Shown here one piece after another: positions 1-15,895 of a stretch of DNA of 40,000 bases. A program made the position numbers and the translations under genes. Under the pieces are notes generated by a model that saw only the letters and a program-made list of their open reading frames with translations, made no database searches and was not told the DNA's origin. The DNA is taken from assembly GCA_964342455.1 (NCBI GenBank), contig CAYFGB010000010.1, forward strand, positions 1 to 40,000. Direction: 5' to 3'. Each line of letters begins with the position of its first letter. Positions within the stretch are counted from its first letter, which is position 1. The DNA comes from an uncultured Hyphomonadaceae bacterium (GTDB lineage Bacteria; Pseudomonadota; Alphaproteobacteria; Caulobacterales; Hyphomonadaceae).

Positions 1-109
1 GCGCTGCGTCAGAGAGTTGATCAAGGGAAAAGCCCGGGCGTTTCGCCGTCGGACCGGAAGAAAAATACGGGCACGTCGGGCGTGCTGCCGGTTTGGTGAC
101 AGTCGTCAT
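1..109 (-). CDS. serC: phosphoserine aminotransferase, first 36 codons only (gene runs off the window start)
   Basis: Absent from the ORF track because it is truncated by the window edge. The minus-strand ATG is at 109-107, preceded by AGGAG (rc of 120-124). The translation is MTTVTKPAARPTCPYFSSGPTAKRPGFSLDQLSDAA. It carries the FSSGPxAKRPG(W/F)S N-terminal signature I associate with the short alphaproteobacterial SerC family. Confidence 0.55.
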   Translation of the reverse strand, partial: MTTVTKPAARPTCPYFSSGPTAKRPGFSLDQLSDAA

Positions 110-238
110 CTGTATTGTACTCCTATCCTTACAGATAGGCTGAGCGCCGTTGGGAGCGCCTGGCCCGCAGCCGCTATCTCACAGATCACTTAACAAAGCG
201 AGAGGGAAAATTGTGACATTTTGTAGAGGGGTAAAAGT

Positions 239-275
239 CCCTCTCCTTCCCAAGGAGAGGGATTTAGGGTGAGGT
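239..275. repeat. left inverted repeat flanking the DUF559 gene
   Basis: Hairpin CCCTCTCCTT-ccc-AAGGAGAGGG (239-261) followed by ATTTAGGGTGAGGT. The reverse complement of 623-657 aligns to it over most positions. Confidence 0.8.
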
Positions 276-281
276 TGAATC

Positions 282-623
282 ATGGTTCAATATCCGAAAT
301 CCAGAGCGCGAAAACTTCGCCGCGAACAGACGGCGGCCGAGAAGAAATCCTGGCAGGTCCTGCGTCAGTTTCGTCAATTTGGTTTTCCGATTCGTCGTCA
401 GCACCCGATAGATGGCATGGTCGTGGATTTTGCTTGTCCAAAAGCAAAACTGGTCATTGAAGTCGATGGCGGCATTCATAACTGGACTGAAGTCGCTTCA
501 AGAGATGAAGCGCGAGACAGCGCACTCAAAGAAGCTGGATGGCGTGTAATTCGTATCAGCAATGAGACGGCAACGGATGCTGATACGCTGTTTCGGACGG
601 TGTCGGAATTTCTTCGTTTATAA
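282..623 (+). CDS. DUF559 / Vsr-like endonuclease-domain protein
   Basis: 113-aa ORF. The layout RKLRREQTAAEKKSW..LR...FRRQHPI...VDF.C...KLVIEVDG..H.........D..R...L...GW.V.R is the typical DUF559 (restriction-endonuclease-like fold) pattern. Family assignment is from memory, not from a search. Confidence 0.8.
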   Translation: MVQYPKSRARKLRREQTAAEKKSWQVLRQFRQFGFPIRRQHPIDGMVVDFACPKAKLVIEVDGGIHNWTEVASRDEARDSALKEAGWRVIRISNETATDADTLFRTVSEFLRL

Positions 624-657
624 CCTCACCCCAACCCCCTCCTTGGAAAGGAGGGGG
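623..657. repeat. right inverted repeat flanking the DUF559 gene; its hairpin is the casposon target
   Basis: ACCTCACCCCAA followed by hairpin CCCCCTCCTT-gga-AAGGAGGGGG. This is the reverse-complement partner of 239-275. Confidence 0.8.
640..653. repeat. left copy of putative target-site duplication (TCCTTGGAAAGGAG)
   Basis: The 14-bp core is identical to 12923-12936. The perfect direct repeat extends to 19 bp (635-653 = 12918-12936) if the C-run is counted. Confidence 0.7.
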
Positions 658-664
658 GGGGGGG

Positions 665-691
665 AAATACTAAGGGAAAATCCATGTACCG
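665..691. repeat. left terminal inverted repeat
   Basis: AAATACTAAGGGAAAATCCATGTACCG. The reverse complement of 12888-12914 reads AAATACTAAGGGAAAATCCGTGTACCG. Weaker similarity (8/11) continues for 11 more bp inward. Confidence 0.9.
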
Positions 692-797
692 CTTAGGTTT
701 TGAATGAGGTGCGTGCCATTATGGCGGACATCACTTCAACCACTTTTGCGATACTTTATTCAAGTTTCGCTGACTGTGTCAGCGCCATAAAACGGGA

Positions 798-1109
798 TTA
801 CAACTCAGGCTCACCTTTCGACATTTCATAGCTCTCACGAAATTCTCTTTGAGCATTCTCAAGTCGGTTTTTCACATCATTGAAGCGCTCGACGATACTG
901 TCCCTGTCCAAGGGAGGGGGAGGAAGGTTACTCGGCGTCAACTCTGGAGCTGGTGGCCTCATCTCAAGTTGGCGCTCCAATTCCTCTTTCTCCATTTTAG
1001 TTGCGATGTCCGGCTCTCTGTCCCTGTTATCAGTCGCGATATCAGGAGCGGTCGCATCATTAAATGCTCCACCATCGCCAGAAAGTGCGTCACCAGAATG
1101 ATCAGACAT
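798..1109 (-). CDS. hypothetical acidic, proline-rich protein (last gene of cargo operon)
   Basis: 103-aa ORF. AAGGAG lies 7 nt upstream of the ATG at 1109, and the ORF starts 12 nt after the stop of the upstream ATPase gene. No motif recognised. Confidence 0.5.
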   Translation of the reverse strand: MSDHSGDALSGDGGAFNDATAPDIATDNRDREPDIATKMEKEELERQLEMRPPAPELTPSNLPPPPLDRDSIVERFNDVKNRLENAQREFRESYEMSKGEPEL

Positions 1110-1121
1110 GAGTTTTCTCCT

Positions 1122-2651
1122 TTAAGTTGACCAGCGTTCATCGCCATTCATGTCGTCGAAATGACGCAACCGGTCCTGAAATATTGAAAGCTCCCACCAC
1201 GGGCAGCGACTCGCTTTGATCAGCTTACATCCGCTGATCTCAATCAGCTGAGCGTCCCGTGGCATATTGAGAATATCTGCGACAGGTAAACGATCCACGG
1301 CCTGCTCTCCCCCAGACGCCGAAGCCGTCCGATTATCCGCACCCTCATTGTAATGTTGGCCGTAGCGAGTAATTTTCCCCGCTCGAGCACTCAAGCGCTT
1401 TGCGGTTTCGAGACTATCTACTGAAAGGTGTTGCACCATATCTGCACTTTCGAACAAATCCTTAGTGCCTTCTTTGCCATAGCGATCAACGAGAGACTGT
1501 TCAGTCTGGCTAAACAGCCAGAATGCCAGCCCCCGCTTACGATATTGCCGAACCCAAGTTGGTAGTGCGGTCTTTGGGAATTGAGCAACTTCATCGAAAA
1601 CGAACAACACCTTTTGCGGTCCGTCCACATCAGCCAGCTGGTCAACAATAGCCGTCATCTTGCGCGCTAAATCCGCACTATTGGCCTCCAGATCGACCTC
1701 TGGGCATTGGAGGTACAAGGTTGTGGGCTCTTTTTTCAGACGCGAAACATCAAACGGAGATTTTGCGGCATCTGCACCTAACAGCGTTCCGGGGGCATAC
1801 GGCGTAAAGGCTTTGCGCAGCTTTTCCATTTTCCAATATGCCTGCTTGGATGCGCCTGAGTTCAACTCATCTTGCATCAGAAGCAAATCTTCCATGATCG
1901 CGAGACCAATTTCCGATTGGCTGATATTGTTGACCATAGTTCCGATCATATCGCTGACGGGCTGCGACAAGAACGACCGCATGGAGCGCATGTTCATTAT
2001 CTCGGGAGCATATGCAGCGCCGTACTTCAAAACGGGCTCTGCATAATCCCTCGCGCCTTCTGCAACCCAAGGAGTATCGTTTTCTCCACGTGCATTTGAT
2101 TGAGGCACGAAAGTATGCGTGATATTACTGATATAACGACATGCCGTAACCATATCGCCGCGGGCAGCGCTACTCGTAATATGCGCAAGAGGGCAAATAC
2201 CAACGCTTTCGATACCGTAAGCCCCTGATGGGTTGTTCGCGACCACATTTTGCCCAAGCCAACTTGCGCGAAAATCTGCAGAAACCCGATAATTTTCATG
2301 ACCGATATCGATAACAACAAGGGAGGTATCGTTATCAATCCACCCCAGATTTGGCTGGATGACATCGCTCCCCTTACCAATTCCCGGCTTGCCAACGGTA
2401 ACCTTGCTAAAATGGCGTGGGTGAAAAAGCATACAGTCGTGGAGCTCATCGAACCCGATATAAGCGCCACCGTTCAATAGCCCTGCAGCACGATAGTCAT
2501 CGATATCCGCAAGCCCCCCACTATCGTGCATACCTGAAGTATGCCCCTGCTCTCGAAGTCTACGTTGCTGCAGGGCAACAAATTCCCGCACTTTTCGGTC
2601 CTGATATTCACGATGCTCTTTTATCCATTGGAGCGCATTACGAAGCTTCAT
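1122..2651 (-). CDS. TraG/VirD4-family type IV coupling protein-like ATPase (soluble domain only, no N-terminal TM segment)
   Basis: The Walker A region VGKPGIGKGSDVIQPNL matches the TraG/VirD4 pattern (..SGKG..V.PNLL). Walker B is LFVFDEVAQF. The downstream segment FWLFSQTEQSLVDRYGKEG....SVDSLETAKRLSARAG resembles the conserved Q..QL...YG / TA..LS..G region. The start ATG overlaps the upstream stop codon (ATGA at 2648-2651). Confidence 0.8.
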   Translation of the reverse strand: MKLRNALQWIKEHREYQDRKVREFVALQQRRLREQGHTSGMHDSGGLADIDDYRAAGLLNGGAYIGFDELHDCMLFHPRHFSKVTVGKPGIGKGSDVIQPNLGWIDNDTSLVVIDIGHENYRVSADFRASWLGQNVVANNPSGAYGIESVGICPLAHITSSAARGDMVTACRYISNITHTFVPQSNARGENDTPWVAEGARDYAEPVLKYGAAYAPEIMNMRSMRSFLSQPVSDMIGTMVNNISQSEIGLAIMEDLLLMQDELNSGASKQAYWKMEKLRKAFTPYAPGTLLGADAAKSPFDVSRLKKEPTTLYLQCPEVDLEANSADLARKMTAIVDQLADVDGPQKVLFVFDEVAQFPKTALPTWVRQYRKRGLAFWLFSQTEQSLVDRYGKEGTKDLFESADMVQHLSVDSLETAKRLSARAGKITRYGQHYNEGADNRTASASGGEQAVDRLPVADILNMPRDAQLIEISGCKLIKASRCPWWELSIFQDRLRHFDDMNGDERWST

Positions 2652-3139
2652 CGTTGTCCTCCATGGCGATCTGTTGAACGGCCAATTGGAATTCTATCGT
2701 CCGGCAATATCCTTTTCTTTGGCGTGACATTGATGAGTGGAGGACGTTTCACACGAGGCTGTTCAGCATTTGACCGGCCAGCTTCCTTTCCTCCTCGTCC
2801 GAGTTCCCGCAGTCCATCAATCCAGCTATGGTACTGGGGCCGACCTATGAAGGAGATTGTTGCCCACGTAACCGACCAACCGAAACCTGCGCAAAGGACC
2901 GTACCCACCCACGGCCATAGAATGGGCATCAGGTTAGGGCCAATAAGAGAACCGCTAACCAACCCAATGACCGGACCGAAGAACCACCCAAACAGCTTAA
3001 ATGGACTTGATATCATGCTGTCCATAGTCAGCGAAATGGCGAAGAATGTTCCGACCAAGATGGTAGGGAGAGCTGCGATACGCAGCCCCCACAAAACTGC
3101 ATCAGCAAAAGTGACACCTGAATTTACGTCGAATTCCAT
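2648..3139 (-). CDS. small polytopic membrane protein with basic C-terminal tail (possible detached TM anchor of the coupling protein)
   Basis: Three hydrophobic segments: LRIAALPTILVGTFFAISL, FGWFFGPVIGLVSGSLIG and MPILWPWVGTVLCAGFGWSVTWATISFIG. I prefer the ATG at 3139, with GGAG 7 nt upstream, over the GTG at 3145. There is a 4-nt overlap with the ATPase gene. Confidence 0.6.
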   Translation of the reverse strand: MEFDVNSGVTFADAVLWGLRIAALPTILVGTFFAISLTMDSMISSPFKLFGWFFGPVIGLVSGSLIGPNLMPILWPWVGTVLCAGFGWSVTWATISFIGRPQYHSWIDGLRELGRGGKEAGRSNAEQPRVKRPPLINVTPKKRILPDDRIPIGRSTDRHGGQR

Positions 3140-3151
3140 AATCACGCTCCG

Positions 3152-3832
3152 CTAAAAGAGGTTCTTGATGGAAATATCGTCTGGATGGACACCAGCAGCC
3201 ACGAAGTACGTCCGGTAAGCAGCCTCAAGATTATCCAACTGCCCGATGCTCATTGCGCCTTCATCAGAGACCGGAATCCCAAGGCCAACGAGCGATACAG
3301 AACACCCCTTCAGATACTCTCGCGCTGGTGTTGCGAACTGCTTTTCGCCACTCAGAACATCCATAAGGTTGGTCTCCCGTCCGGTTTCCAGCCCATCTGT
3401 CAGCAAAATGACGGTGCTACCCGGCGAACACTGGATAGGGGCCGTTTGCAGAGCAAAAAAGATCGAGGTTTCGGAGACGGTGAACTTCTCATTTGGAATG
3501 CCCGCAATATATTCGGCCACACCACCCGCGAGCTTGGACACACGGAGTTTCCGACCTGTTGTCCAAGATTTGGGATTGAGAATATCCCAATTCCGATCTC
3601 CGATGTGCTGGAGATAAATTGTATCACCAAGCAACGCACTGTTTGCCAAAAGGCTTGAAACCGACGCAGCTGCACGTTGCGCGTACGCTTCATTCTGCAC
3701 CAATGGAACACTTCCCGTCACATCAAGGAAGACGTAGTGGTTTGCCGGGGTCGAACGACGATCCGTCGCATTTGCCAAACCCGATGTAGCGAGTGCAAGA
3801 CCGAGGCAAAGCATCACAAAAATATTCTTCAT
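3152..3832 (-). CDS. secreted protein with VWA-like (MIDAS-variant) motifs
   Basis: Start set at MKNIFVMLCLGLALATSGLANA, a signal peptide, with an AAGGA RBS and 2 nt after the upstream stop codon (3837-3839). FLDVTGSV (DxTxS), ETSIFF and ILLTDGLET follow the order of VWA metal-site motifs. The fold assignment is tentative. Confidence 0.55.
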   Translation of the reverse strand: MKNIFVMLCLGLALATSGLANATDRRSTPANHYVFLDVTGSVPLVQNEAYAQRAAASVSSLLANSALLGDTIYLQHIGDRNWDILNPKSWTTGRKLRVSKLAGGVAEYIAGIPNEKFTVSETSIFFALQTAPIQCSPGSTVILLTDGLETGRETNLMDVLSGEKQFATPAREYLKGCSVSLVGLGIPVSDEGAMSIGQLDNLEAAYRTYFVAAGVHPDDISIKNLF

Positions 3833-3836
3833 AGTT

Positions 3837-4838
3837 TTAGTCCTTCTTATTGCTGTAAAGGTCGAGGGGATATGCGCCGTGCTCAGCAGCATGGGCCAAT
3901 GTCGGGCGATCCAATGCGCGAAACCGGCGACACAGATTTTCCAGAGCACTGAAGCTGACCGCTTTCAGTCCTTTGTCGGTTGGGAGTATGGCATCGCCTG
4001 TATCTGCCGCGAGGCACTTCTCAGCGAGCGCCTCCTCCAGAGCGCTTGCGAGTGGTTCAATGGCCTCCGAAACAACACTGCCCGTGTCGTCGAAACTCCA
4101 TTCTGGCAAAAGTTGCTCGCGGGCTGTCTGGAGATGATTGAGCTTGCTGGCCGTTTCTCGTGCTTCGCGCAAAACCGCACGTCCTTCAGCGAGTTTAGGC
4201 CAGTCCTCCCAAGCTCGCCGAGCGAGACCAAGCATCAACGAGATCATTGAAGACACCAGCGCGAAGCTTAACAGCGGAAAGCCGAACAAAGTCAGGCTAA
4301 ACCAGCCGGCTCCAATCTGAGCCGCCAATTCCGCAAGAGACTTATCGAACCATCCGTCACCCTCTTCTGGCGCTGTCGCCAGACCGAGACCAAGATCAGT
4401 CGGCTCATTTGCAGCGATCAATCCGTCCGCGATATATGGACCCAGACTTGCGGCGATAAGCCCGCCCAAACCCAGCAATGTCCCGATAACGAACAGCCGC
4501 ATAAGATTCGCGACAATAACCGAGGATTGTTTGTTGGCTTCATGCAGAAATGCATGCGCAGCAATGAAGGCAAAAAATGCAAGGCTGGCAGCGACGACCA
4601 TTCCGAGAGGATTGGATGAGTCATCAACGCCCAATACTGGCGGGAAAGCCGCTTCAAAGGCTGCTAAAATCAGTTTGGCATCCACCATAGTGACGCACGC
4701 AATTGCACCGCACAGAAAGAGGGCTGCTGCAGCTCTAACTGGAGCAAAGCGACCAGCCTTTTGGAGGTCGTATGCAAATTGCTCGATGCATGCCTGAGCG
4801 GCCAGAAGAATGGCTGGTTCTTTGGTGTTGAACTCCAT
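3837..4838 (-). CDS. polytopic membrane protein, function unknown
   Basis: 333-aa ORF with at least 4 hydrophobic helices and a C-terminal helical soluble region. The GGAGG RBS is embedded in the end of the upstream gene. Confidence 0.55.
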   Translation of the reverse strand: MEFNTKEPAILLAAQACIEQFAYDLQKAGRFAPVRAAAALFLCGAIACVTMVDAKLILAAFEAAFPPVLGVDDSSNPLGMVVAASLAFFAFIAAHAFLHEANKQSSVIVANLMRLFVIGTLLGLGGLIAASLGPYIADGLIAANEPTDLGLGLATAPEEGDGWFDKSLAELAAQIGAGWFSLTLFGFPLLSFALVSSMISLMLGLARRAWEDWPKLAEGRAVLREARETASKLNHLQTAREQLLPEWSFDDTGSVVSEAIEPLASALEEALAEKCLAADTGDAILPTDKGLKAVSFSALENLCRRFRALDRPTLAHAAEHGAYPLDLYSNKKD

Positions 4839-4840
4839 GG

Positions 4841-5209
4841 CTACACCTCCCGACCTGCGCGCGCACGCTCGCGGATACGGTCCAGAAAGCCTTTTTCAGG
4901 GTTCACCTGCGTCAATCCATAGAGCATACGGATGCGATGATGGGCGTCTTCGATCTCGGCATCGATTATAGCCACTTGATGCGCTCGCAGTCGGCGGGCC
5001 TCATCATGGAGGCGTGATATCAATCCCGCAGGCGGGATCGTCAGTTTTTCTACGCTGGCGGACAGCTTGTGTTTCAATGCCTCAAATTGCGAATTGTCTG
5101 CATCAATCGGTGCCCAAGCATTCTCTGCCGAACTCTTTTGTGCCGATGATGAATTCGTCTGAGCGAAATCCTCTTCAAACGAGCCAAACCCCTTCATGTC
5201 GTCGGGCAT
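4841..5209 (-). CDS. hypothetical protein (first gene of cargo operon)
   Basis: I prefer the ATG at 5209 (GGGGAG 8 nt upstream) over the GTG at 5218. The C-terminal half looks helical or coiled-coil. No motif recognised. Confidence 0.45.
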   Translation of the reverse strand: MPDDMKGFGSFEEDFAQTNSSSAQKSSAENAWAPIDADNSQFEALKHKLSASVEKLTIPPAGLISRLHDEARRLRAHQVAIIDAEIEDAHHRIRMLYGLTQVNPEKGFLDRIRERARAGREV

Positions 5210-5468
5210 AAGCCGCACTCCCCTGTTCGGGCCCGCGTCAAGCGGTCCGTTGTTGCCGTTTCAATGGGATAATTCCCAGTCACAAGAGAGGTGGGGATTG
5301 TCGAATCTTGGACGCACAAGCGGCCTGATCTGTCACTATCGGTATTACAGCCTGCCCAGTTACGTGAGCTGCGTAATGGGGCGATCCTTCTCCCGACAAA
5401 AGACGTTCATGACCTGCCTCACCTCTGAAAGCAGAGTGTGCACATCATTAGGTATCCTGTCAAGTTTT

Positions 5469-5494
5469 AGATATCCAATTGTATTTGGATATCT
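5469..5494. promoter_or_regulatory. inverted repeat AGATATCCAA-ttgtat-TTGGATATCT (candidate operator)
   Basis: Perfect 10-bp arms. A half-site AGATATCCAAA recurs at 6347-6357, upstream of the 261-aa gene. Confidence 0.45.
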
Positions 5495-6278
5495 AATTAT
5501 GGACTCGACCGGCTAGTTTTTGATTGGAAGGTGTTGGATTAATTCCGACTTCAGCCAGCAAGTCCTGAGGTACTTGATAGCCTTTGCGGATTGCTGCCAG
5601 AAAAAGCTCTCTGGTCATCCATTCGGTTCTGTTGCCGCCTGCTTCTCGGTCTGCAATTGAATTAAATAATTCGATGACTCGTGCATCAACTTTGAAAGAC
5701 AGGTTCTTTTTCCGTACATTTCGGTGATGTTCGGGAGGCAAGTCAGGACATGGAAGCTCCTGTCTCTTTCGCACTCTTCGCTGCGGCTTCTGGCTCTGCA
5801 AGCTATTAGTGATCTGATCGTACAATATTAAATGGTAATAATTTGAATCAATATCCCCCAATAAATTTACATACTTGTCGCTAATCGCAAGAAAGTCTTG
5901 AATATCGTAGAATTCTTCAGAGCGATAACTATCAATAGAATGCGCTAAATCTTGCATTATATCTGCTGATATTCTTTCAAGTGATTTAGTCTGCAAAACT
6001 AACGGCCAAATCTCATCCAAAATCACGGGAGGTTGTCGTCCCTGAATGAGTTCACCGGTTACGGTTTTTTGAAAGTCAGCAGGAATTCGCGACAAAACTT
6101 CGTCGGATAGTTGCCAAATATATGCTTGAAATTCTATTTTGGTGCGAAGCCGACGTTTTCGAAAACCTGAGCGGTCCACCTCTTCGAAACTTCTTTCAGC
6201 AATATCCAGATGTCGCTGATATCTGTCTTCGCCACTGATGGAATCCTCAGATTGAGTAAAGTCAGTTATATTGTCCAT
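5493..6278 (-). CDS. hypothetical protein with C-terminal ribbon-helix-helix-like segment
   Basis: 261-aa ORF with a GGAGAAG RBS and visibly AT-richer codon usage than its neighbours. KNLSFKVDARVIELFNSIADREAGGNRTEWMTRELFLAAIRKG has a strand-helix-helix layout like CopG/Arc-type repressors. The RHH call is tentative. Confidence 0.5.
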   Translation of the reverse strand: MDNITDFTQSEDSISGEDRYQRHLDIAERSFEEVDRSGFRKRRLRTKIEFQAYIWQLSDEVLSRIPADFQKTVTGELIQGRQPPVILDEIWPLVLQTKSLERISADIMQDLAHSIDSYRSEEFYDIQDFLAISDKYVNLLGDIDSNYYHLILYDQITNSLQSQKPQRRVRKRQELPCPDLPPEHHRNVRKKNLSFKVDARVIELFNSIADREAGGNRTEWMTRELFLAAIRKGYQVPQDLLAEVGINPTPSNQKLAGRVHN

Positions 6279-6346
6279 GATGTTGTGCTTCTCCAGTCCT
6301 GAAGCTTCGATTCGAGGCTTTAGTCAGCATATACACAATTATTAAT

Positions 6347-6357
6347 AGATATCCAAA
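6347..6357. promoter_or_regulatory. AGATATCCAAA half-site upstream of the 261-aa gene
   Basis: Same 10-mer as the arms of the 5469-5494 inverted repeat. It lies about 70 bp upstream of the start at 6278. Confidence 0.35.
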
Positions 6358-6619
6358 CGAGACTGTGTGCATAGGTGGTTTCACTCGTCTTTTAGGTGCA
6401 TGACAGCGCCGAAAGTAGCCACCGTTGATCTGGCTACATCAAGTTTAGTTCTTCAGTCGCGCTGAAAAGGCGCCGCGGATGCCTCAGGGGCTCCGCGGAC
6501 AATTGCTTGATGGTCATAGCTCTCAGTTGATCACATCAGCTGTCCGACGAGCGCGCTTTGATCTGCGCACCGGGTTCGCATCGCGCAAGATCGGCTTGGT
6601 GGTTTAATCAACTTCAACA

Positions 6620-6892
6620 CTATGCCGATTTATAAAAGCTGTCTGGCTTCTGTTCCTGTTTGGGCGGGGCATCCAGATGAACGGCAGCCCTCAGAAGAGC
6701 TTCCCTTTGATCGGGCCAAATTTTTTGCAATTCATTAAACGCGGCGAGGCGAGCTATTTGAATGTCTCTAGGGTTTCGAGGGCGTTTGGTCTTGTGGTCA
6801 TAGCTCTCGGTAAGTCTGAGCTGTTGTCTGACCAGCTCCCTTCCGTCTGCGTAGACCGGGCCATACGCATTGCTGCTATTCGATTTAGCCAT
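6620..6892 (-). CDS. hypothetical small protein
   Basis: I prefer the start MAKSNSS at 6892 (GGAGGGA RBS 6 nt upstream) over the ORF-track start at 6940. No motif recognised. Confidence 0.4.
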   Translation of the reverse strand: MAKSNSSNAYGPVYADGRELVRQQLRLTESYDHKTKRPRNPRDIQIARLAAFNELQKIWPDQREALLRAAVHLDAPPKQEQKPDSFYKSA

Positions 6893-6995
6893 ATCACTTC
6901 CCTCCGAAACTATGCGGACATATCCACTCCATTGCTGCACTTAGAAAAAAGTGCTCCTCGAAATCTCAATCGTCAAGGGAAAAAAGGCCGTGTTA

Positions 6996-7012
6996 AATAT
7001 CATAATGATATT
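6996..7012. promoter_or_regulatory. 17-bp palindrome AATATCATAATGATATT (candidate operator, copy 1)
   Basis: Perfect palindrome around a central base. Its reverse complement is identical to copy 2 at 7069-7085. Confidence 0.5.
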
Positions 7013-7068
7013 AATGGTGCAAATAAGGTGTAATATTCACTAACGTTTGACGCCCGTAAGTTCTTATA

Positions 7069-7085
7069 AATATCATTATGATATT
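7069..7085. promoter_or_regulatory. 17-bp palindrome AATATCATTATGATATT (candidate operator, copy 2)
   Basis: Same site as 6996-7012, with centres 73 bp apart. It lies in the spacer between the cas1 stop and the 90-aa gene. Confidence 0.5.
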
Positions 7086-7258
7086 TAATAACTTTCAATG
7101 GTCACGAAGGTGGAGTTTTCGGTAGGGGCTATATCTGTCAGATGAGGTGAGTATTGAGCGCTCAAATTCAGGCACGAAGCCTTAGATTGCGCAAGCAAAC
7201 TATGAGAGCTTATTCCCAGATATGTAAAAGAACCAACTCAATGGGTGGCAGCAGCTTG

Positions 7259-8314
7259 CTACAATTGGCCAGAACACAGACAGGCCCCAACTGATAAAAT
7301 GGCCGCCAGCTTCGCCGACAGCCTGCACATTCCATCTTGTCGGATGTAAAAGTCTTTCACTGTGAACCGTTCATTCAGTGCAAACTCCAACACAGCCTTA
7401 TCGACTTCAGGCCTATGTGGTTCAATGAGGTCCAACACATAGGAAGGGCGCTCTTCATAATTGCCATGAAAGATGCCGAAGTTCGGATCGTATCCGTGCG
7501 CCACCACGTCTAGTCGAATTTGAGATTCCAGAACCGCATAGCCATAGTTCAACATGGCATTGATGGGGTGATCCGCCTTTCGGTTACGCGCATTCTTACC
7601 TGCAATATTGGATGACCGTTTTGAATAGCTGAGCCATGGCGTTGGAACAGGATGTTGATTAATGCCCTTCCACCTCAACTCCAATCCGTTCCAGACATCG
7701 AAGTACCGTGCGGCAGCAACGCCTTCGATGCCCCGCAAGGCATCGACGCTGTCGGCTTCTCCATTTGCAATCTTGTGAAGGCCTTTCTCGGCCCAGATTT
7801 CCGCTTCGCGCCTCACCTCTGACGGCGGAAAAATTTCCCGTAATGTCACAAGGCTCGCTTCGAGCTTTCGTCTCACCAAAGCAGCACAAAAATCGAGACG
7901 TTTTTTCGGGTCATTTCGAATGGCAATTTGTTCCTGTAGTCTGACTGCGCAGATTGCGCCTTTTGATCCTCCGACAATGGCGCTGACTTTTCCCTTATAG
8001 GAGAGGTTCAAAAGCACCACGTCTTGAGCTTCCAGCCAGTCCAAAACAGCAAGCGTAATTGCGCCGGATGTTTCGATAAAAATGATGCGTTCTGGAATAG
8101 CCATTTCACCGGGATAAAACCGCCAGAACTTTTTCTCCTCGCTCGCATAGCTGCGCCCATTCTCAATTTCGAGTGCACCATTTCTGATGCGCAATTGGAC
8201 GCCATGTCCCGTCAAAATCAGTGGGTGCTTTCTTCGATGTCTGGCAAGCGTTTTAGGTTCCAGTTTTTCCGCTTTATTTTCCCAATACGCACAGCGCGAA
8301 TCCCAAGTGTCCAT
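7259..8314 (-). CDS. cas1: Cas1-family integrase (solo Cas1, casposase-like)
   Basis: 351 aa. The N-terminal beta domain is LILTGHGVQLRIRNGALEI...IIFIETSGAITLAVLDWLEAQDVVLLNL. The helical catalytic domain has LRGIEGVAAARYF (Glu), KADHPINAMLNYGYAVL (His) and GYDPNFGIFHG.....SYVLDLIEPHRPEVD (acidic residue). Order and spacing are typical of Cas1 (PF01867-type). Confidence 0.9.
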   Translation of the reverse strand: MDTWDSRCAYWENKAEKLEPKTLARHRRKHPLILTGHGVQLRIRNGALEIENGRSYASEEKKFWRFYPGEMAIPERIIFIETSGAITLAVLDWLEAQDVVLLNLSYKGKVSAIVGGSKGAICAVRLQEQIAIRNDPKKRLDFCAALVRRKLEASLVTLREIFPPSEVRREAEIWAEKGLHKIANGEADSVDALRGIEGVAAARYFDVWNGLELRWKGINQHPVPTPWLSYSKRSSNIAGKNARNRKADHPINAMLNYGYAVLESQIRLDVVAHGYDPNFGIFHGNYEERPSYVLDLIEPHRPEVDKAVLEFALNERFTVKDFYIRQDGMCRLSAKLAAILSVGACLCSGQL

Positions 8315-8571
8315 TTTCGACTCATTTTCTAGATGATTTATTCCTCAAGAAAATCATAGCAAAAATGTAGCCGAAAACTTAGAGAAAACGAGTTCCTTAT
8401 TGGAATAAAATGCACCAATAATTTATTTATGTTTTTTATGTCAAATTAATTCTCAGTATCTAATCTCAAAAAATGAACTCTATATTTACTGTATACATAC
8501 TATTGGCGCTAATTTTGCATGAATTTTCTCGGTAGTCCCGATACGGGACAGTTCAGAGATGAGTTTCGACC
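8315..8571. promoter_or_regulatory. AT-rich divergent control region between cas1 and the HTH-HNH-polB operon
   Basis: 257 bp, much more AT-rich than the surrounding DNA. It contains the inverted repeat ATGATTT-N11-AAATCAT (8333-8357) about 19 bp upstream of the cas1 start. It also contains hairpin GTCCCG-ata-CGGGAC (8535-8549) 22 bp upstream of the HTH gene start. No promoter hexamers are called. Confidence 0.5.
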
Positions 8572-9084
8572 ATGCCAAGGAAAACGAGTAAGAAGCGGTA
8601 TCGCTGGACGCGAAGCAAAGCGAATGAGCGCTTCGCTGCACTGCCAACGGAACGCAGGAGAGCCTATAGACTTGCTTTTCTGAGTGTGAAGAAAGGCGCG
8701 AGCATTACTAAAGCAGCTAGAGACTTTCACGTGGACCGTGAGAACCTCTCCTCATACGTCATAGCGAATTCACGGTTCAGGAGGAAGAAGGGTGGAAAGC
8801 TCAAAATCCTTCAGGATAAGCGTGTCGTGCCAAGAAGCGTTGTCACCACTGGCGGCTTGCTTCGACTCTCCATGAGTGCCGACCAAATCGAGAAAATCAG
8901 CGCACACAATCGCGATGTCGAACGCGAACGGCAGAACAAACAAGTTGGTGTTTTGGCGAAATGGGAAGGTGAGCAGGTCAGAGACACCGATGGTAATCGG
9001 TATGATTTGCTCTTTTCCAGAGAGGAATTGTTTGAAGTTCTACCGCCTAATGAAGCGCGGGATGACAATTACGACGAGGCGTAA
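8572..9084 (+). CDS. helix-turn-helix DNA-binding protein
   Basis: 170 aa. GASITKAARDFHVDRENLSSYV looks like a classical HTH. The gene ends 1 nt before the HNH gene start. Confidence 0.6.
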   Translation: MPRKTSKKRYRWTRSKANERFAALPTERRRAYRLAFLSVKKGASITKAARDFHVDRENLSSYVIANSRFRRKKGGKLKILQDKRVVPRSVVTTGGLLRLSMSADQIEKISAHNRDVERERQNKQVGVLAKWEGEQVRDTDGNRYDLLFSREELFEVLPPNEARDDNYDEA

Positions 9085-9085
9085 C

Positions 9086-9922
9086 ATGTCAGGGTTTCAA
9101 ACAGCAAAAGAAACGCACAAGCGCGCCACGCAGTCAGCACGGCGCGAACGCCAGCTTAAAATGCGGGGTCATGCTTGCTACATGTGCGGTGTTGAAGACC
9201 CCGAACTTCTGAAACTCGTCTATCTCGATGAGAAGAACATGTGGGACAAGTCGGAGGCTGTGCTGTGTCGTAACCACCGCCAGCTTCTTACCGTTTATCA
9301 AAACGCGGAAAAACTGCCTCAAGGGTTCCGACCCAACAGCAATGTAACCGTTTTCGATGCGCTATACATGGAAGCCAGCTTCGCTGACATGAACCGCCAA
9401 TCCTCCCTCAATAATCATAAGCAGTTTGCTGCTGAACATGTTGACCAAACGCTTCAACTTTCAAATCTGATTGAAGACCATTCGATACTCAAAAAGCGCC
9501 TGAAGAAGGCGATGAAGAAAGACCCATTTGGAACTCACGCAGATTGTTATTGTGCGATTTGCCATGAAGTGAGGCCAATGGTTCTGGAAGCTCATCATGT
9601 GGACAGGGAGGGGCTATCCGAGCGAGCCATTATTCTCTGTCATAACCATCATGACCTTGTCTCAATTGAGCAAAGATATCACCCCGACAAAGACGCGCTC
9701 CTATCGCTTGCGGATGACTATCGCGATTTTGTTGCTCAACGCCTTGGGATGGATGTTCTCGAAAAATTAGCTGCAATGCAGAAAGAGGCGACATCCAAAG
9801 TTCTATTCGATGATGCCATTCTGATGGCAAAAATTCACCAACTCGCAAATTCGCCGGATGCCGAGCTATCTGCAGAAGAATTTGAGGAAATGCTGGTTCC
9901 GGGTGTGGTAAAATGGAGCTGA
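9086..9922 (+). CDS. HNH endonuclease-domain protein (two Cys/His modules)
   Basis: Start moved to MSGFQT at 9086, because the ORF-track extension 8876-9085 overlaps the HTH gene. Module 1 is CYMCG...LCRNHRQL. Module 2 is CAICHEV..LEAHHVD......LCHNHHDLV. The stop overlaps the polB ATG by 10 nt. Confidence 0.75.
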   Translation: MSGFQTAKETHKRATQSARRERQLKMRGHACYMCGVEDPELLKLVYLDEKNMWDKSEAVLCRNHRQLLTVYQNAEKLPQGFRPNSNVTVFDALYMEASFADMNRQSSLNNHKQFAAEHVDQTLQLSNLIEDHSILKKRLKKAMKKDPFGTHADCYCAICHEVRPMVLEAHHVDREGLSERAIILCHNHHDLVSIEQRYHPDKDALLSLADDYRDFVAQRLGMDVLEKLAAMQKEATSKVLFDDAILMAKIHQLANSPDAELSAEEFEEMLVPGVVKWS

Positions 9923-12867
9923 AGCTTCGCGCCTTCGTAACACCTGAGAAAGGATTTAAGGGCTCGCGGCGAAAGCCATTTCCCAGACATCGCAGTGGAC
10001 GGACACTAACTTTCGATTGCGAAACACGCACAGACGCATCACAGCGTTTGCGGTTCGGAGCATATCGCATTGATGACGAGCCAGATGAGAATGGTGAAAC
10101 ACTCGTCTCCGAGGGCTTGTTTTACGATGAAGGCGGACTGGAAGACGGTGAGCTCGAAACACTGAAAGAGTATGCCCATTCTGAAGGTTTGCCGATTCTC
10201 AGCTATCAAGAATTCAGTGAAGAGATATTGCTCAGCCAATGTTACGAGCTGTCAGGCACAATAATCGGCTTCAACCTACCATTCGATTTGTCGCGCCTAG
10301 CCGTCAATGCATCCCCTTCCCGTAGATACAAGAACGATGACCGTTTTGAGAACGGCATTACGCTTCATCTTTTGCCCAATCAAAAGTATCGCGGAAAAGT
10401 TCGCGTTGGTCATGTAAACGCCAATCGGTCACATCTCTCATTCTACAAGGAGTTTGACTCCTACTATTTCGGCAACTTCATCGACGTGAAGACGCTCGGC
10501 ACTTCGTTGTTGTCCGGCACGTCCAGCCTTGCATCGGTTGCGAAGGCACTCGGAGTTTCGCATGAAAAAATGGAGACAGACGAGCACGGCAAGACGCTCA
10601 CGCGGGATTATATCGAATACGCCCGAAACGATGTGACCTGCACGTGGGAGTGCTATTGCGAACTGCTCACGCGACTAGGCACCCATGCGTTTGACGATTT
10701 AGACGATATGCAGGTCAACAGCGAAGCAAGCATAGGAAAAGCGTATCTTCGAGACTTCGGCATTCTGCCTTGGCGACAAGTCCAACCGAATTTTCCGCCT
10801 GAAATCACCGGCAAGATTATGAGTAGCTATTTCGGCGGTCGGACAGAAGTTCGTATTCGCCGGGACATCCGCGAAGTGTTCTATGCAGATTTCCTGTCCA
10901 TGTACCCAACGGTAAATGCGCTCATGGGGTTGTGGAAGTTCGTCATTGCGGAAGGCGTGGACTATGACGAGAGCGAAGACGCGAAATCTTGGACGACGGA
11001 GTTTCTTGAAAACGTCACCGGGGGAGATTTTCAATGCCAAGAGATTTGGCGAGACCTGCCGACGCTGGTTCAAGTTAAGCCTGATGATGACGTCCTTCCC
11101 ATTCGGGCTGATTTCGCAGATTCAGGCACAACCAATATCGGCATTAATCACCTGACATCTGACGCGCCGCTTTGGTTCACGCTCGCCGATTGCGTCGTGT
11201 CCAAACTGTTGACGGGCAAAACTCCGAAAGTTGAACGCGCAATTCGGTTCAGCCCAAAGTTACCTCAACATGGCCTGAAAACGAAAACACTACTGGGTCA
11301 AACGGACGGCGTGATTGACCCCTATAGTGACGACTTTTTCAAACGATTGATTGAAGAGCGCGCCAAACTGAAGGCGGCGAAGAACTCAGCGGCAGGTGAA
11401 GAAAAAGCCCGTCTGAAAATTGCAGAGAAAACCGTCAAGATTATTGCTAATGCGGCAAGCTACGGGCTCTTCATTGAGTTGAACCCGAAAGACTATCCAG
11501 AACCTCAAAGCGCTATTCGTTATGGGTTTGAGGTTGAGCCGCACGCGTTCGAAACCAAGACACTTGAGATACCCGGAGAGTATTTCCACCCACTTTTGGC
11601 AACCTGCATAACAGGTGCGGCTAGGCTCATGCTGGCGCTGGCTGAATGGCGCGCTGCGCAGCACAAAATAAACTGGACGTTCTGTGACACAGACGGACTG
11701 GCACTCGCAAAGCCAGACCATATGGAAAGAGCGGATTTTCTCACCAAATGTCGTGATGTTCTCGATTGGTTTAAACCGCTCAATCCATATGACGGGCAAG
11801 CTGGAATTTCTGTCCTTGAGCCCGAGGAAGAGAACTTCCACCCTGATTACGAAGTTGAAAAATCCAATCCTGATTGGACGCAGCTCCAACCTCTTTATTG
11901 CTATGCTGTTTCAGCGAAACGCTATGTCCTGTTCAACGAAATTGATGGCGACATCAATATCAGAAAATCTTCAGCTCACGGACTTGGCTATTGGGCGACA
12001 CCCTTTGGGGAGTTTGATGAAACTGCTGGTGAGTGGGAATGGCGCTTGGCACTTTGGGAGCACATCATCAAAGCTGCCAGAGAAGACAAAGATGATGAAA
12101 TCGACCTCTCGAAAGACGACCGCTTCAATCTAGCTGCAGCCGGACAATCAACCATTACGCGTTGGGATCAATTCCAATGGTATGCCCGATACAATGCGCA
12201 ACAAGCCACAGGCCATGGCCCGATTGATGATTATCGAAACGGTATTCAGCCGTTCAATTTCTTCCTTCGATTTCTGAACAAAGCTCATGACCGTGTTGAT
12301 GACACGAATCCAGATGTCGAAATCTGGCGTGCAATTGTTGGCCGGGAGCCAAAGCTTGCAGCGCCGTTCGATAAAGACTTGGGAACTGCAGCCTCACAAC
12401 TTTTCGACATTGAAGCCCAAACGAACGACGCGACAGAGGCGATTGATTTTTCGCCTTGGCTTCGGTCCTTCAGCGATAGGTTTTCCGACTATAATCTCCA
12501 TCGCGAAAACAAGTTCGCCGATTGTCAGGTCCACACAAAAGGACTTCTTCAGAGAAGGCACGTTCAAGCGAGCGGATTTGCGCACATCGGTAAGGAAAGC
12601 CATGATTGGGACGAAACACTTGTCCCGTGGGCCAATGAAAGCGGCGGAATTAGTTTCGGAACGTCCAATCTCGACACAGCATCAAAGCGGGACATCATCT
12701 TGAACGCATTGAGCAAAGGAACGTGCAGCTCAAATCAGCTTGTTCGGATGACGGGCGTTTCCAAAACCACGATGAGCCACTTGAAGCAGGGCAAACCTAT
12801 TCCACTGTCCAGCCTAGCGAAACTCCATGACGCGGTGATGTCGTTGCTGCACGCCGAAACGGTCTAG
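9913..12867 (+). CDS. polB: family B DNA polymerase with 3'-5' exonuclease domain and C-terminal HTH
   Basis: ExoI is FDCET (D at 10015). ExoII is GFNLPFDLSRL (N at 10273). ExoIII is YARNDV (Y at 10618). Motif A is YADFLSMYPT (D at 10888). Motif B is KIIANAASYGLF (11437-11472). Motif C is FCDTDGLAL (DTD at 11687-11695). A KxY motif, SAKRYVL, is also present. The C-terminal segment NQLVRMTGVSKTTMSHLKQGKPIPLSSL looks like an XRE-type HTH. Confidence 0.9.
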   Translation: MELKLRAFVTPEKGFKGSRRKPFPRHRSGRTLTFDCETRTDASQRLRFGAYRIDDEPDENGETLVSEGLFYDEGGLEDGELETLKEYAHSEGLPILSYQEFSEEILLSQCYELSGTIIGFNLPFDLSRLAVNASPSRRYKNDDRFENGITLHLLPNQKYRGKVRVGHVNANRSHLSFYKEFDSYYFGNFIDVKTLGTSLLSGTSSLASVAKALGVSHEKMETDEHGKTLTRDYIEYARNDVTCTWECYCELLTRLGTHAFDDLDDMQVNSEASIGKAYLRDFGILPWRQVQPNFPPEITGKIMSSYFGGRTEVRIRRDIREVFYADFLSMYPTVNALMGLWKFVIAEGVDYDESEDAKSWTTEFLENVTGGDFQCQEIWRDLPTLVQVKPDDDVLPIRADFADSGTTNIGINHLTSDAPLWFTLADCVVSKLLTGKTPKVERAIRFSPKLPQHGLKTKTLLGQTDGVIDPYSDDFFKRLIEERAKLKAAKNSAAGEEKARLKIAEKTVKIIANAASYGLFIELNPKDYPEPQSAIRYGFEVEPHAFETKTLEIPGEYFHPLLATCITGAARLMLALAEWRAAQHKINWTFCDTDGLALAKPDHMERADFLTKCRDVLDWFKPLNPYDGQAGISVLEPEEENFHPDYEVEKSNPDWTQLQPLYCYAVSAKRYVLFNEIDGDINIRKSSAHGLGYWATPFGEFDETAGEWEWRLALWEHIIKAAREDKDDEIDLSKDDRFNLAAAGQSTITRWDQFQWYARYNAQQATGHGPIDDYRNGIQPFNFFLRFLNKAHDRVDDTNPDVEIWRAIVGREPKLAAPFDKDLGTAASQLFDIEAQTNDATEAIDFSPWLRSFSDRFSDYNLHRENKFADCQVHTKGLLQRRHVQASGFAHIGKESHDWDETLVPWANESGGISFGTSNLDTASKRDIILNALSKGTCSSNQLVRMTGVSKTTMSHLKQGKPIPLSSLAKLHDAVMSLLHAETV

Positions 12868-12887
12868 CTTTCTAGCCAACACCCAAC

Positions 12888-12914
12888 CGGTACACGGATT
12901 TTCCCTTAGTATTT
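12888..12914. repeat. right terminal inverted repeat
   Basis: CGGTACACGGATTTTCCCTTAGTATTT, the reverse complement of 665-691 with one mismatch. It begins 20 nt after the polB stop. Confidence 0.9.
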
Positions 12915-12922
12915 ACCCCCCC

Positions 12923-12936
12923 TCCTTGGAAAGGAG
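12923..12936. repeat. right copy of putative target-site duplication (TCCTTGGAAAGGAG)
   Basis: Identical to 640-653. It sits inside a third copy of the host hairpin (12916-12943) that lacks the ACCTCACCCC part of the DUF559 flank. Confidence 0.7.
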
Positions 12937-12958
12937 AGGGAGGCGCTGAACTTTAACG

Positions 12959-13204
12959 TCAATCCTCTTCACCCAACGCCGCAAGTTTCGCCTGAACGCG
13001 GCCCCGGTTTTTCGTTGCGATAGCAACATATTGGCTAGCGCCCGCCGCTTCAAAAACCTCAAGCGCCGCGTCAGTACACGCAATCGAGCGCTGATAATTG
13101 TCTCTTTGGTTCTCGCCCTTGTCGCCCATCGTTTCGTAAAGTACTGCCAGATTTGCCTGCGCCGTGCCTGAAACTATCCCGCTCCTGCCGTTTTCATGCC
13201 GCAT
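12959..13204 (-). CDS. small TPR-like protein or fragment
   Basis: 81-aa ORF. ANLAVLYETMGDKGENQRDNYQRSIACTDAALEVFEAAGASQYV resembles the terminal repeats of TPR proteins. It may be a remnant. Confidence 0.35.
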   Translation of the reverse strand: MRHENGRSGIVSGTAQANLAVLYETMGDKGENQRDNYQRSIACTDAALEVFEAAGASQYVAIATKNRGRVQAKLAALGEED

Positions 13205-13302
13205 CAGTGGGGCATGTGTTTTGCGCGTGCAAATGAGTAGGCATTTGCGATGAATGCCGTTAGGACGTTAAGGATGACTGATATGACAACGCCCCGGGGG
13301 AA

Positions 13303-13821
13303 TTGATGGAAGCGGTCAGCGACGACAAAGGCTCAATCTACGAACAATTGGTGCGGTTCACCCGGACGCACGCCCCACCACAGACAGCCACGCGGCGAAG
13401 CCGGGTCCGGCCCGCCAGCCGTATGGAAATGTATATTGCGGCGGGAATGCTGGCGCTGCCCATCATACTGATCATTCTGAACGGTCTGATCGCGGGCGAT
13501 TCCTTTATTGGTGACATTCTGAATTTTGGCCTGATGGGCGTTTTTCTGGTCGGCATTGTCTACGCCCTGTCCGTGGCCGGATCGATGATCCTGTCGAAAC
13601 GCGGCAGTCCGCCTGCCGTCAAATGGGTCGCCGCTGTCGTGCTGGAACAGGATACGCGGTTCGATGAGGGCATTCCGGTCGATTATGTTGTGCTCGAGCT
13701 TGAAGACGGAAGGCGGGTGACCCTGAAAACGGATAGCGATACCTCCGACAGGGCTCAGATGGGTACGATTGGCTGGGCCAATATCGAAAAGTCCACACTC
13801 GTCCGTTTCGTGGCTGAGTGA
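13303..13821 (+). CDS. membrane protein, function unknown
   Basis: 172 aa with two hydrophobic helices followed by a soluble C-terminal domain. Its stop overlaps the GTG of the next ORF. The antisense ORF 13333-13836 is judged a shadow ORF. Confidence 0.5.
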   Translation: MMEAVSDDKGSIYEQLVRFTRTHAPPQTATRRSRVRPASRMEMYIAAGMLALPIILIILNGLIAGDSFIGDILNFGLMGVFLVGIVYALSVAGSMILSKRGSPPAVKWVAAVVLEQDTRFDEGIPVDYVVLELEDGRRVTLKTDSDTSDRAQMGTIGWANIEKSTLVRFVAE

Positions 13822-13826
13822 GCGGT

Positions 13827-14492: not shown

Positions 14493-14501
14493 CCTGTCCG
14501 G

Positions 14502-15437: not shown

Positions 15438-15454
15438 ATGTCCACCTCTTGAAT

Positions 15455-15757
15455 TTATTTGAGTTTCGACAGGATGCTCTGAAGTTGCATGACAACAGAC
15501 ATGTCGCCTTCGACCTTCAGTTTACCCTGCATAAAGGCCATTGTGGGGTCCAGCTCGCCCTTGGCCAGTTTCTTGAAGTCTTCCCAGGCGACGCGGATTG
15601 TCGCGTCCGACGGCGCGTCAGCGTCATTATTGGCGATGTTCTTCGCGCCATCGAGAAAGAGCGTTCCGAAGTCACCGAAATCGAATTTTACGGTCTTGTC
15701 AAAGTCCGATCCGGAAAGGGCTGCCTGCGCCTGCGCAGTGAGTTCGGCCAGATCCAT
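15455..15757 (-). CDS. SCP2 sterol-binding-domain protein
   Basis: Start set at MDLAELTA (GGGAGA RBS). The C-terminal DPTMAFMQGKLKVEGDMSVVMQLQSIL is the typical SCP2 ending. Confidence 0.75.
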   Translation of the reverse strand: MDLAELTAQAQAALSGSDFDKTVKFDFGDFGTLFLDGAKNIANNDADAPSDATIRVAWEDFKKLAKGELDPTMAFMQGKLKVEGDMSVVMQLQSILSKLK

Positions 15758-15895
15758 CTTGCTGTCTCCCTTGACGAATTTTCGAAACTCTATGGACGGC
15801 TCGCATGGCGAAAGCAAGTCACCCTGCGTCAATAAGAAAAAACACTGTTCATCGGAAAATGTCTCGATAGTCTGCTATCCTCAAGGGAGGCCCGA

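Follow-up and report, generated by a model that had tools for sequence, protein, structure and literature searches.

A putative coupling-protein operon, probably of mobilizable-element type, in a casposon of an uncultured marine bacterium

Casposons, the transposons from which CRISPR adaptation is believed to have arisen, carry varied cargo and are patchily distributed, and an HNH gene is typical of families 2 and 3 (PMC4046053). Type IV coupling proteins (T4CPs) that lack a transmembrane domain (TMD) are known to work with a small adjacent membrane protein, as do TraJ/TraI of pIP501 and, similarly, TraG with TraJ of R27, and this small protein is thought to provide the anchor (PMC7434980). 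Mobilizable plasmids that bring their own T4CP, e.g., CloDF13, are also recognised, and a relaxase plus a T4CP without mating pair formation (MPF) genes is the standard make-up of such plasmids (PMC7434980). In a survey of the TARA mobilome, mobilizable and incomplete conjugation gene sets dominated in surface-ocean bacteria (PMC11104534). Here, a 40,000-nt stretch of DNA from an uncultured Hyphomonadaceae bacterium (GenBank assembly GCA_964342455.1, contig CAYFGB010000010.1, positions 1 to 40,000 of the forward strand; hereafter the window) was analysed. It contains a casposon of approximately 12.3 kb from a marine bacterium, with genes for a Cas1-family casposase and a family-B DNA polymerase-like protein (PolB), and a six-gene minus-strand operon is located at 798-5209 within its terminal inverted repeats (TIRs). 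This operon is probably a T4CP module that rides as casposon cargo and is of a type found on plasmids and islands that are mobilizable but do not transfer themselves.

The six genes, named by the lengths of their products in amino acids, are as follows (ORF, open reading frame; RBS, ribosome-binding site; TM, transmembrane; VWA, von Willebrand factor A; MIDAS, metal ion-dependent adhesion site).

4841-5209, minus strand: w122, first gene, 122-aa soluble protein, ORF with RBS
3837-4838, minus strand: w333, polytopic protein of the inner membrane, 4 TM helices, C-terminal part long and helical
3152-3832, minus strand: w226, secreted (periplasmic) VWA-like protein with signal peptide and MIDAS motif
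2648-3139, minus strand: w163, small membrane protein with 2-3 TM helices and a basic C-terminal tail
1122-2651, minus strand: w509, VirD4/TraG-family T4CP ATPase, no TM helix
798-1109, minus strand: w103, last gene, small acidic Pro-rich protein, ORF with RBS

The start codons chosen were those also used in the gene calls on the source contig. In order, the junctions are gaps of 2, 4, and 12 nt, a 4-nt overlap (w163/w509), and a gap of 12 nt. All six ORFs are intact and each start is preceded at 6-10 nt by a GGAG-type Shine-Dalgarno sequence. A preliminary description, made from the letters of the window, had reported six tightly packed minus-strand genes with good RBSs and junctions ranging from a 4-nt overlap to a 12-nt gap, and the ORFs are as described; hydropathy and composition also agree with the polytopic, secreted, membrane, and acidic Pro-rich features assigned to the products. 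Promoter and terminator scans gave results no better than those for shuffled sequence. With E ≤ 0.1 as the limit, none of the six proteins matched a defence family of PADLOC, and four of the six had no match to any curated family.

The ATPase, w509, scored above the cut-offs of three Pfam T4CP families, T4SS-DNA_transf (PF02534; E = 1.3e-21, 77.5 bits, cut-off 20.1), TraG-D_C (PF12696; E = 5.8e-17, 62.2 bits, cut-off 22), and TrwB_AAD_bind (PF10412; E = 2.9e-7, 30.2 bits, cut-off 20.5), in line with the earlier label of T4CP-like ATPase. The TraG and VirD4 models of NCBIfam were matched far under their equivalog cut-offs, and the best matches among 72,556 plasmids were TraG-type T4CPs with only 23-27% identity over residues 40-500 approximately. 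Walker A is GKPGIGKG (residues 87-94), in the GKG form that VirD4 and TraG typically have; Walker B is FVFDE (residues 350-354, with D353-E354). Both motifs are kept in the closest relatives, and neither the lysine K93 of Walker A nor the glutamate E354 of Walker B varies among 19 members of the clade described below. A profile of this clade placed both motifs in register with those of Cagbeta/VirD4 (8DOL, E = 3.7e-19) and TrwB (1E9R, E = 1.3e-8); the catalytic residues, whose loss in a proper alignment had been named beforehand as evidence against the preliminary description, are kept. Hydropathy scanning detected no TM helix in w509, hence the N-terminal TMD of most T4CPs is absent, and the protein falls in the recognised subclass of T4CPs lacking the TMD. 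Judged from these profile matches, w509 is a true but very divergent coupling protein of the VirD4/TraG family with intact nucleotide-binding motifs.

An exhaustive profile search of 1.84 billion representatives yielded 4960 relatives of the ATPase at E ≤ 0.001, including 50 at E ≤ 1e-30. Most of these 50 are 500-530 aa long, with alignments starting near the N-terminus. Nearly all of the approximately 45 best relatives are without an N-terminal TM helix by hydropathy, and a few members of 630-690 aa have three. In a neighbor-joining tree, the window ATPase grouped with P0002 (from locus L001), P0005, and P0006 (L005). This group was sister to one formed by L007, L008, the P0012 contig, L006, and L009, which includes plasmids with MobA/MobL, and the TM-bearing T4CPs fell apart from the window group. 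A word-indexed homolog search with a 19-sequence profile returned few clade members, and scans of genome, metagenome, and viral contigs for loci of ATPase relatives, carried out with two alignments, returned nothing. The genomic contexts given below were therefore taken from the contigs of the matches in the exhaustive search. By these sequence criteria, the clade is one of undescribed T4CPs without TM helices from uncultured, largely marine bacteria, with about 50 representatives.

Hydropathy predicted 2-3 TM helices in w163, the gene of which overlaps that of w509 by 4 nt. The w163 family was detected in seven loci (the window, L001, L005, L006, L007, L008, and L009). Its member lies immediately 5′ of the ATPase gene with an identical 4-nt overlap in the window, L001, L005, L008, and L009; it is 11 nt upstream of the ATPase gene in L006 and displaced in L007. 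We infer that w163 and w509, which look like a split T4CP, may belong to the known class exemplified by pIP501 TraJ/TraI; the likeness of w163 to TraI or TraJ is one of gene position and description, not of sequence comparison. The preliminary description had found no described system to match the gene combination, which is too strong because a TMD-less T4CP with a small membrane partner is a described class (PMC7434980).

The third protein of the recurring block, w226, has an N-terminal signal peptide, and its family is present in the window, L001, L005, and L011. Across these four homologs, D37, S41, T122, and D146-G147 are invariant and follow the MIDAS pattern D-x-[ST]-x-S ... T ... TDG, the first part of which reads D37-V-T-G-S41 in w226 and D-D-S-R-S in L001. 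Two Cys residues are conserved, and a Cys occurs at a lipobox-like position in three of the four. An AlphaFold2 (AF2) single-sequence model was of low confidence (pLDDT 54.6, pTM 0.57), but its beta-alpha-beta succession is that of a VWA domain. When this model was searched against the PDB with Foldseek, the top matches were nearly all VWA domains, including CLCA1 (6pyo, E = 2.6e-4), factor B, CMG2, VWF-A1, and integrin I domains, with TM-scores of 0.3-0.5. Pfam gave no VWA match for w226, the PDB profile search was empty, nothing was found in the 72,556 plasmids, and the word-indexed homolog search returned only the protein itself. The VWA-like label given earlier is accordingly supported, not proven, by the MIDAS residues and the fold matches of the low-confidence model.

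Ten genomic contexts of the ATPase clade were examined within ±10 kb. A relaxase was encoded in 5 of them, of the MobA/MobL type in L008, L011-L013, and the P0012 contig and of family PF03432 in L015 and L016. The three contexts with MobA/MobL also carried Rep (RPA) and ParA. VirB4 or any other recognisable gene of a type IV secretion system (T4SS) was found in none of the ten, and the uncharacterised proteins of L007, L008, and L011 had no match to a T4SS family. In these contexts, the clade thus keeps company with relaxase, Rep, and Par genes but in no case with VirB4, a pattern typical of mobilizable elements. L011-L013 represent a plasmid of approximately 24 kb, present in 22 contigs, with an RPA-type Rep, ParA, ParDE, and a MobA/MobL relaxase-helicase. 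Its operon carries a w226 homolog and encodes proteins of 107, 333, 231, 219, and 517 aa, in parallel and in the same order with the 122, 333, 226, 163, and 509 aa of the window. Rep, ParA, MobA/MobL, and the T4CP are also encoded together on two small plasmids, L008 and the P0012 contig; with L011 included, these plasmids range from about 12 to 24 kb.

The closest relatives, L001 (44% ATPase identity) and L005 (31%), contain the w226-w163-ATPase core without Cas1 or PolB, indicating that the block is a portable module. A search of genome neighbourhoods for the gene set with or without casposon genes, as suggested beforehand, found the core also without Cas1 and PolB. Around the core in these loci are small tyrosine recombinases, Fic, toxin-antitoxin (TA) pairs, ParA, and an MmeI-type enzyme.

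Several results weigh against assigning the operon to mobilizable elements. Neither a relaxase nor VirB4 or another T4SS gene was detected in the window or its visible flanks with Pfam, applied to the large ORFs, and NCBIfam, and a six-frame search of window positions 1-13500 with the L008 and L011 relaxases gave nothing. An oriT did not come to light either, although no search was aimed at it. L001 and L005 also have no relaxase in the visible DNA, so a relaxase might be dispensable for this ATPase subclade. Many of the contexts are incomplete, all being metagenomic contigs, and the tree is rough and without support values. A hidden Markov model of the w163 family did not match the N-terminal TM domains of the TM-bearing (fused) clade members, so that the term split T4CP is based on gene position and coupling only. 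For w333, w122, and w103, comparison of positional equivalents by hhalign demonstrated no homologs, and a literature search revealed no role for a periplasmic VWA protein beside a T4CP.

In those comparisons, w333 and the 333-aa protein of L011 are equal in length and have TM helices at similar positions by hydropathy (34, 80, 115, and 177 in w333; 33, 80, 114, and 176 in L011), but the hhalign E value of 0.011 is not significant, and the L001 and L005 counterparts also showed no significant similarity to w333. The AF2 model of w333 is all-helical and unreliable (pLDDT 52, pTM 0.31). The 107-aa gene of L011 is a positional equivalent only of w122 (hhalign E = 0.039), and the other w122 counterparts were not significant either. 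The last protein, w103, contains 25 D/E versus 13 K/R and 11 prolines; 1-2 small genes follow the ATPase gene in the relatives, hhalign found no significant similarity between their products and w103, and w103 is not conserved. None of w333, w122, and w103 belonged to a family in Pfam, NCBIfam, PADLOC, or PHROGs.

With no detectable relaxase in the casposon copy, the module is most likely captured, still intact cargo, and its substrate would need to be supplied in trans. The earlier statements that the T4CP is an orphan and that the operon is not a conjugation system agree with the lack of relaxase, VirB4, and pilin genes in the window. Capture by chance of a well-known plasmid DNA transfer and replication block had also been considered; the plasmid part of this idea largely stands, given the relaxases in half of the contexts and the order and sizes of the L011 genes, but the block is not a well-known one. 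A different outcome of such a capture would be an inert passenger, i.e., a piece of a mobilizable plasmid or island that entered the casposon by recombination, lost its relaxase, and is functionless but not yet decayed. A relaxase is indeed missing here and present in related elements, casposon cargo is varied (PMC4046053), and the ATPase stands alone in its 90% cluster, unlike Cas1 and PolB, of which close relatives occur on other contigs. However, the six ORFs are intact, tightly coupled, and provided with RBSs, the catalytic and MIDAS residues are conserved, and the relaxase-less arrangement recurs in L001 and L005 at 31-44% ATPase identity, which argues for selection on the block. An inert passenger is therefore considered rather unlikely; if the module were one, the finding would be only a curiosity of casposon cargo content.

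For a working module of the mobilizable type, the following mode of action is proposed. The small protein w163 would anchor w509 to the inner membrane, giving a split T4CP like pIP501 TraJ/TraI. The resulting motor, presumably hexameric, would then dock on a conjugative T4SS from a co-resident plasmid or integrative and conjugative element and feed a protein-DNA substrate into it, and w333 and w226 might form an envelope platform for docking on this helper T4SS.

The plasmids of L008, L011, and the P0012 contig encode a relaxase, the block, Rep, and Par and nothing MPF-like, and envelope proteins are always in the block. These features could also be expected of a self-sufficient, VirB4-less minimal DNA translocator, in which the T4CP motor, w163, w333, and the periplasmic VWA protein would act without a classical T4SS; a single FtsK-like ATPase is enough for transfer in actinomycetes (PMC3429521). 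Such a translocator is very improbable, since no outer-membrane channel or VirB4 homolog was found in the contexts, a relaxase plus T4CP without MPF is the usual mobilizable plasmid (PMC7434980), and the casposon copy is without a relaxase.

Defence and addiction genes (MmeI, CBASS, SIR2 with an SMC-like protein, Fic, and TA pairs) occur in related loci, and the periplasmic and membrane partners call for an explanation. Proteins by which plasmids act on the coupling proteins of rivals have been described (PMC5696584). It was considered that the module acts against other elements, by entry exclusion or fertility inhibition, for example by occupying or blocking a co-resident T4SS, or as a membrane-tethered anti-phage module of the FtsK/HerA superfamily. 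However, PADLOC had no match for the six proteins, the neighbouring defence genes vary by locus as with ordinary plasmid or island cargo, and the genes that regularly accompany the clade are those for relaxase, Rep, and ParA. An activity of this kind is quite unlikely, and the HerA-like defence or exclusion module hypothesised in the preliminary description is not supported, the relatives being linked to Rep, Par, and relaxase genes and not specifically to defence islands.

Other features of the related loci were also recorded. Defence cargo on relaxase plasmids with clade members comprises a CD-NTase with a patatin (CBASS; L011, 1-1497) and SIR2 with an SMC-like ATPase (L015, 2375-7112). Fic and Ank are common domains of T4SS effectors, and Fic genes are also ordinary plasmid cargo. 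Fic-domain genes lie beside the module in four loci (L001, 1084-2607; L005, 14305-14907; L007, 8093-8806; L011, 1774-2466). Two of these genes are preceded by that of a small partner, and identity between the copies of L007 and L011 is 65%. The L001 operon also includes a small ankyrin-repeat protein (7210-7536). Short tyrosine recombinases (approximately 190-210 aa), with approximately 40% mutual identity, accompany the module in L001 (3466-4035), L005 (8210-8836), and L008 (14563-15150). A family of approximately 70-86 aa with a conserved KPTH...IGAAW...G motif occurs near the module in five loci, not in the casposon. It had no match in Pfam; a DUF736-like identity was suspected and is not claimed. 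Its members are located as follows.

L001, 3009-3230 and 11613-11873: KPTH-motif family
L005, 7783-7992: KPTH-motif family
L007, 9246-9476: KPTH-motif family
L009, 4175-4438: KPTH-motif family
L011, 16691-16894: KPTH-motif family

The L006 island (1-8011) is situated in a chromosome region with trpF (PRAI) and a carboxyltransferase, gene types that also flank the casposon (window 13818-17443).

The remaining features of the casposon are listed below (HTH, helix-turn-helix).

654-702: left TIR, 49 nt, 88% complementary to 12877-12925
5493-6278, minus strand: w261, a 261-aa casposon gene between the operon and cas1, ORF 274 nt upstream of the operon
7259-8314, minus strand: Cas1-family casposase, Pfam Cas_Cas1 E = 7.8e-36
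9086-9922, plus strand: basic 278-aa protein, weakly HNH-like, with matches to PHROG HNH endonuclease families at E = 0.003-0.04 only
9913-12867, plus strand: 984-aa family-B DNA polymerase-like protein, PF03175 E = 1.3e-5, C-terminal HTH
12877-12925: right TIR, 49-nt arm pairing with 654-702

The TIRs are flanked by a target site duplication (TSD), an exact 14-bp direct repeat (TCCTTGGAAAGGAG) with copies at 640-653 and 12923-12936. The sole polymerase match of the PolB-like ORF was to the protein-primed family PF03175, with 24.8 bits just under the cut-off of 25.8. Pfam placed HTH_26/HTH_5 at aa 926-973 of this protein, and a PDB sequence search gave no match. From these assignments, the element has the make-up of a bacterial casposon, with Cas1, PolB, TIRs, and TSD, although the PolB match is weak. 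The casposon context named in the preliminary description is upheld by the same features. The identical region is present on TARA Oceans metagenome scaffolds, and the rest of the window contains housekeeping genes (trpF, carboxyltransferase, purA, PGM, MscS, MCP, and thiolase).

Further observations concern the ends and intergenic regions of the element. The terminal homopolymers are unequal, with 13 G (654-666) opening the left TIR and only 7 C (12919-12925) at the right end. A gene for a DUF559/Vsr-like endonuclease (282-623, Pfam E = 1.1e-28) lies between two near-identical G/C-rich palindromic hairpins (238-261 and 635-657). Since the 14-bp TSD is part of the downstream hairpin, the casposon appears to have inserted into a terminator-like palindrome beside this gene. 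An AT-rich 23-nt inverted repeat (6993-7015/7066-7088, 96% complementary, 50 nt apart) is located between a 106-aa ORF and the 3′ end of cas1, and several sigma-70-like matches overlap it. No significant family was found for w261 in Pfam, NCBIfam, PADLOC, or PHROGs, and a ribbon-helix-helix-like C-terminus, noted by eye, was not backed by Pfam. Its GC content at third codon positions (GC3) is 0.374, far under that of the rest of the element (approximately 0.51), and w261 may have been acquired separately and more recently.

With a coding GC3 of 0.52, the operon is close to the casposon core (0.51) and apart from host genes (0.64), indicating that it is foreign to the host and compositionally no different from the remainder of the element. 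At ≥90% identity, Cas1 and PolB cluster with proteins encoded elsewhere, on a 13,005-bp ENA contig (Cas1 P0167 and PolB P0172) and a 7,550-bp Logan contig (P0166 and P0176), and 90% identity was confirmed for P0167. This is different from the w509 cluster, which is a singleton at 90%, and the difference hints that sister casposons may lack the operon or differ in cargo. Cas1 scans of genome contigs and viral contigs detected no sister casposon.

These data bear on whether the operon serves the casposon in particular, with the T4CP handing a protein-DNA intermediate of the casposon (bound by Cas1, PolB, or a terminal protein) to a resident T4SS, the casposon being a relaxase-less mobilizable element. 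The operon lies inside the TIRs with GC3 matching that of the core, so it is no obviously recent add-on, and its ORFs and motifs are intact. T4CPs on mobilizable elements work with helper T4SSs (PMC7434980), and the cell-to-cell spread of casposons is unexplained and their distribution patchy (PMC4046053). On the other hand, no casposon protein is known, or was shown here, to be covalently attached to DNA, and PolB scored below threshold against the protein-primed family. The module also occurs in L001 and L005 without Cas1 or PolB, and so is not adapted to casposons; a literature search gave no other casposon with a T4CP or any conjugation gene; and Cas1 and PolB have sister copies on other contigs whereas the ATPase does not at 90%. 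Mobilisation specific to the casposon is thus unlikely. That the casposon itself is the transfer substrate is unproven, and entry into a helper T4SS by means of its own split coupling protein without a canonical relaxase, with Cas1, PolB, or an unrecognised bound partner as the secretion substrate, is a doubtful proposition. The preliminary description had suggested hijacking of a resident T4SS by a protein-capped linear intermediate. The general form of this hypothesis is plausible, as T4CPs act in this way on mobilizable plasmids, but the protein-capped intermediate is unsupported, with PF03175 sub-threshold and no terminal protein or relaxase found in the window.

The movement of casposons between cells is unexplained, and an intact coupling-protein module offers a concrete and testable candidate route via a helper T4SS. 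If the casposon did use its own coupling protein, casposons would be conjugatively mobilizable transposons and their patchy spread would be explained.

The operon, read as a captured module of mobilizable-element type, can be compared with several known systems. In family 3 (bacterial) casposons, HenMar-C1 and NitAL212-C1 share with the present element Cas1, an HNH-like gene, PolB, TIRs, a 14-bp TSD, and intergenic insertion in bacteria; this likeness is one of gene content, not of Cas1 or PolB phylogeny. The published cargo of family 3 consists of helicases, methyltransferases, a kinase, nucleases, and small DNA-binding proteins, without a conjugation-related gene (PMC4046053), whereas the present casposon carries a T4CP.

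Compared with canonical T4CPs of the VirD4/TraG/TrwB type (Cagbeta 8DOL, TrwB 1E9R, and TraG of IncP and Ti plasmids), w509 has the same nucleotide-binding domain, Walker A and B motifs, and TraG-D_C region. It differs in being without the N-terminal TMD, in not lying beside VirB or Trb genes, and in sharing only 23-27% identity with the TraG proteins of plasmids.

Mobilizable plasmids with their own T4CP resemble the casposon operon in that a T4CP is present, MPF is absent, and a helper T4SS is needed, and L008, L011, and the P0012 contig show the same Rep-ParA-relaxase-T4CP layout; the casposon copy differs in having no detectable relaxase. In pRSMS3, typed as mobilizable (MOBQ), a gene for a periplasmic protein is located just upstream of the T4CP gene, analogous to the casposon layout. 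This periplasmic protein is SIMPL, whereas the casposon partner is VWA-like, and the pRSMS3 T4CP has ≤28% identity to the clade member used as the query. As that T4CP contains TM helices itself and lacks a partner resembling w163, pRSMS3 was rejected as a close analogue.

The pairs of pIP501 (TraJ/TraI) and R27 (TraG and its neighbour TraJ, a multi-TM protein of approximately 200 aa) are alike to w163/w509 in that the gene of a TMD-less VirD4/TraG ATPase directly follows that of a small multi-TM protein. These pairs belong to complete conjugative T4SS operons, whereas the casposon pair has no T4SS in cis. The host of pIP501 is Gram-positive, and w163/w509 occur in a marine metagenome-assembled genome of proteobacterial type. 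Relative to both pairs, the casposon operon adds a periplasmic VWA-like protein and a 4-TM protein. If assigned correctly, the clade extends the class of split T4CPs, known from Gram-positive and IncH systems, and adds envelope partners to it. Its members have a conserved small membrane partner and, in part of the clade, a periplasmic VWA-like protein, and they sit on small relaxase-bearing plasmids and islands without a T4SS. The novelty would lie in the combination of a split T4CP, lacking the TMD, with new envelope partners and in its link to a new carrier, a casposon.

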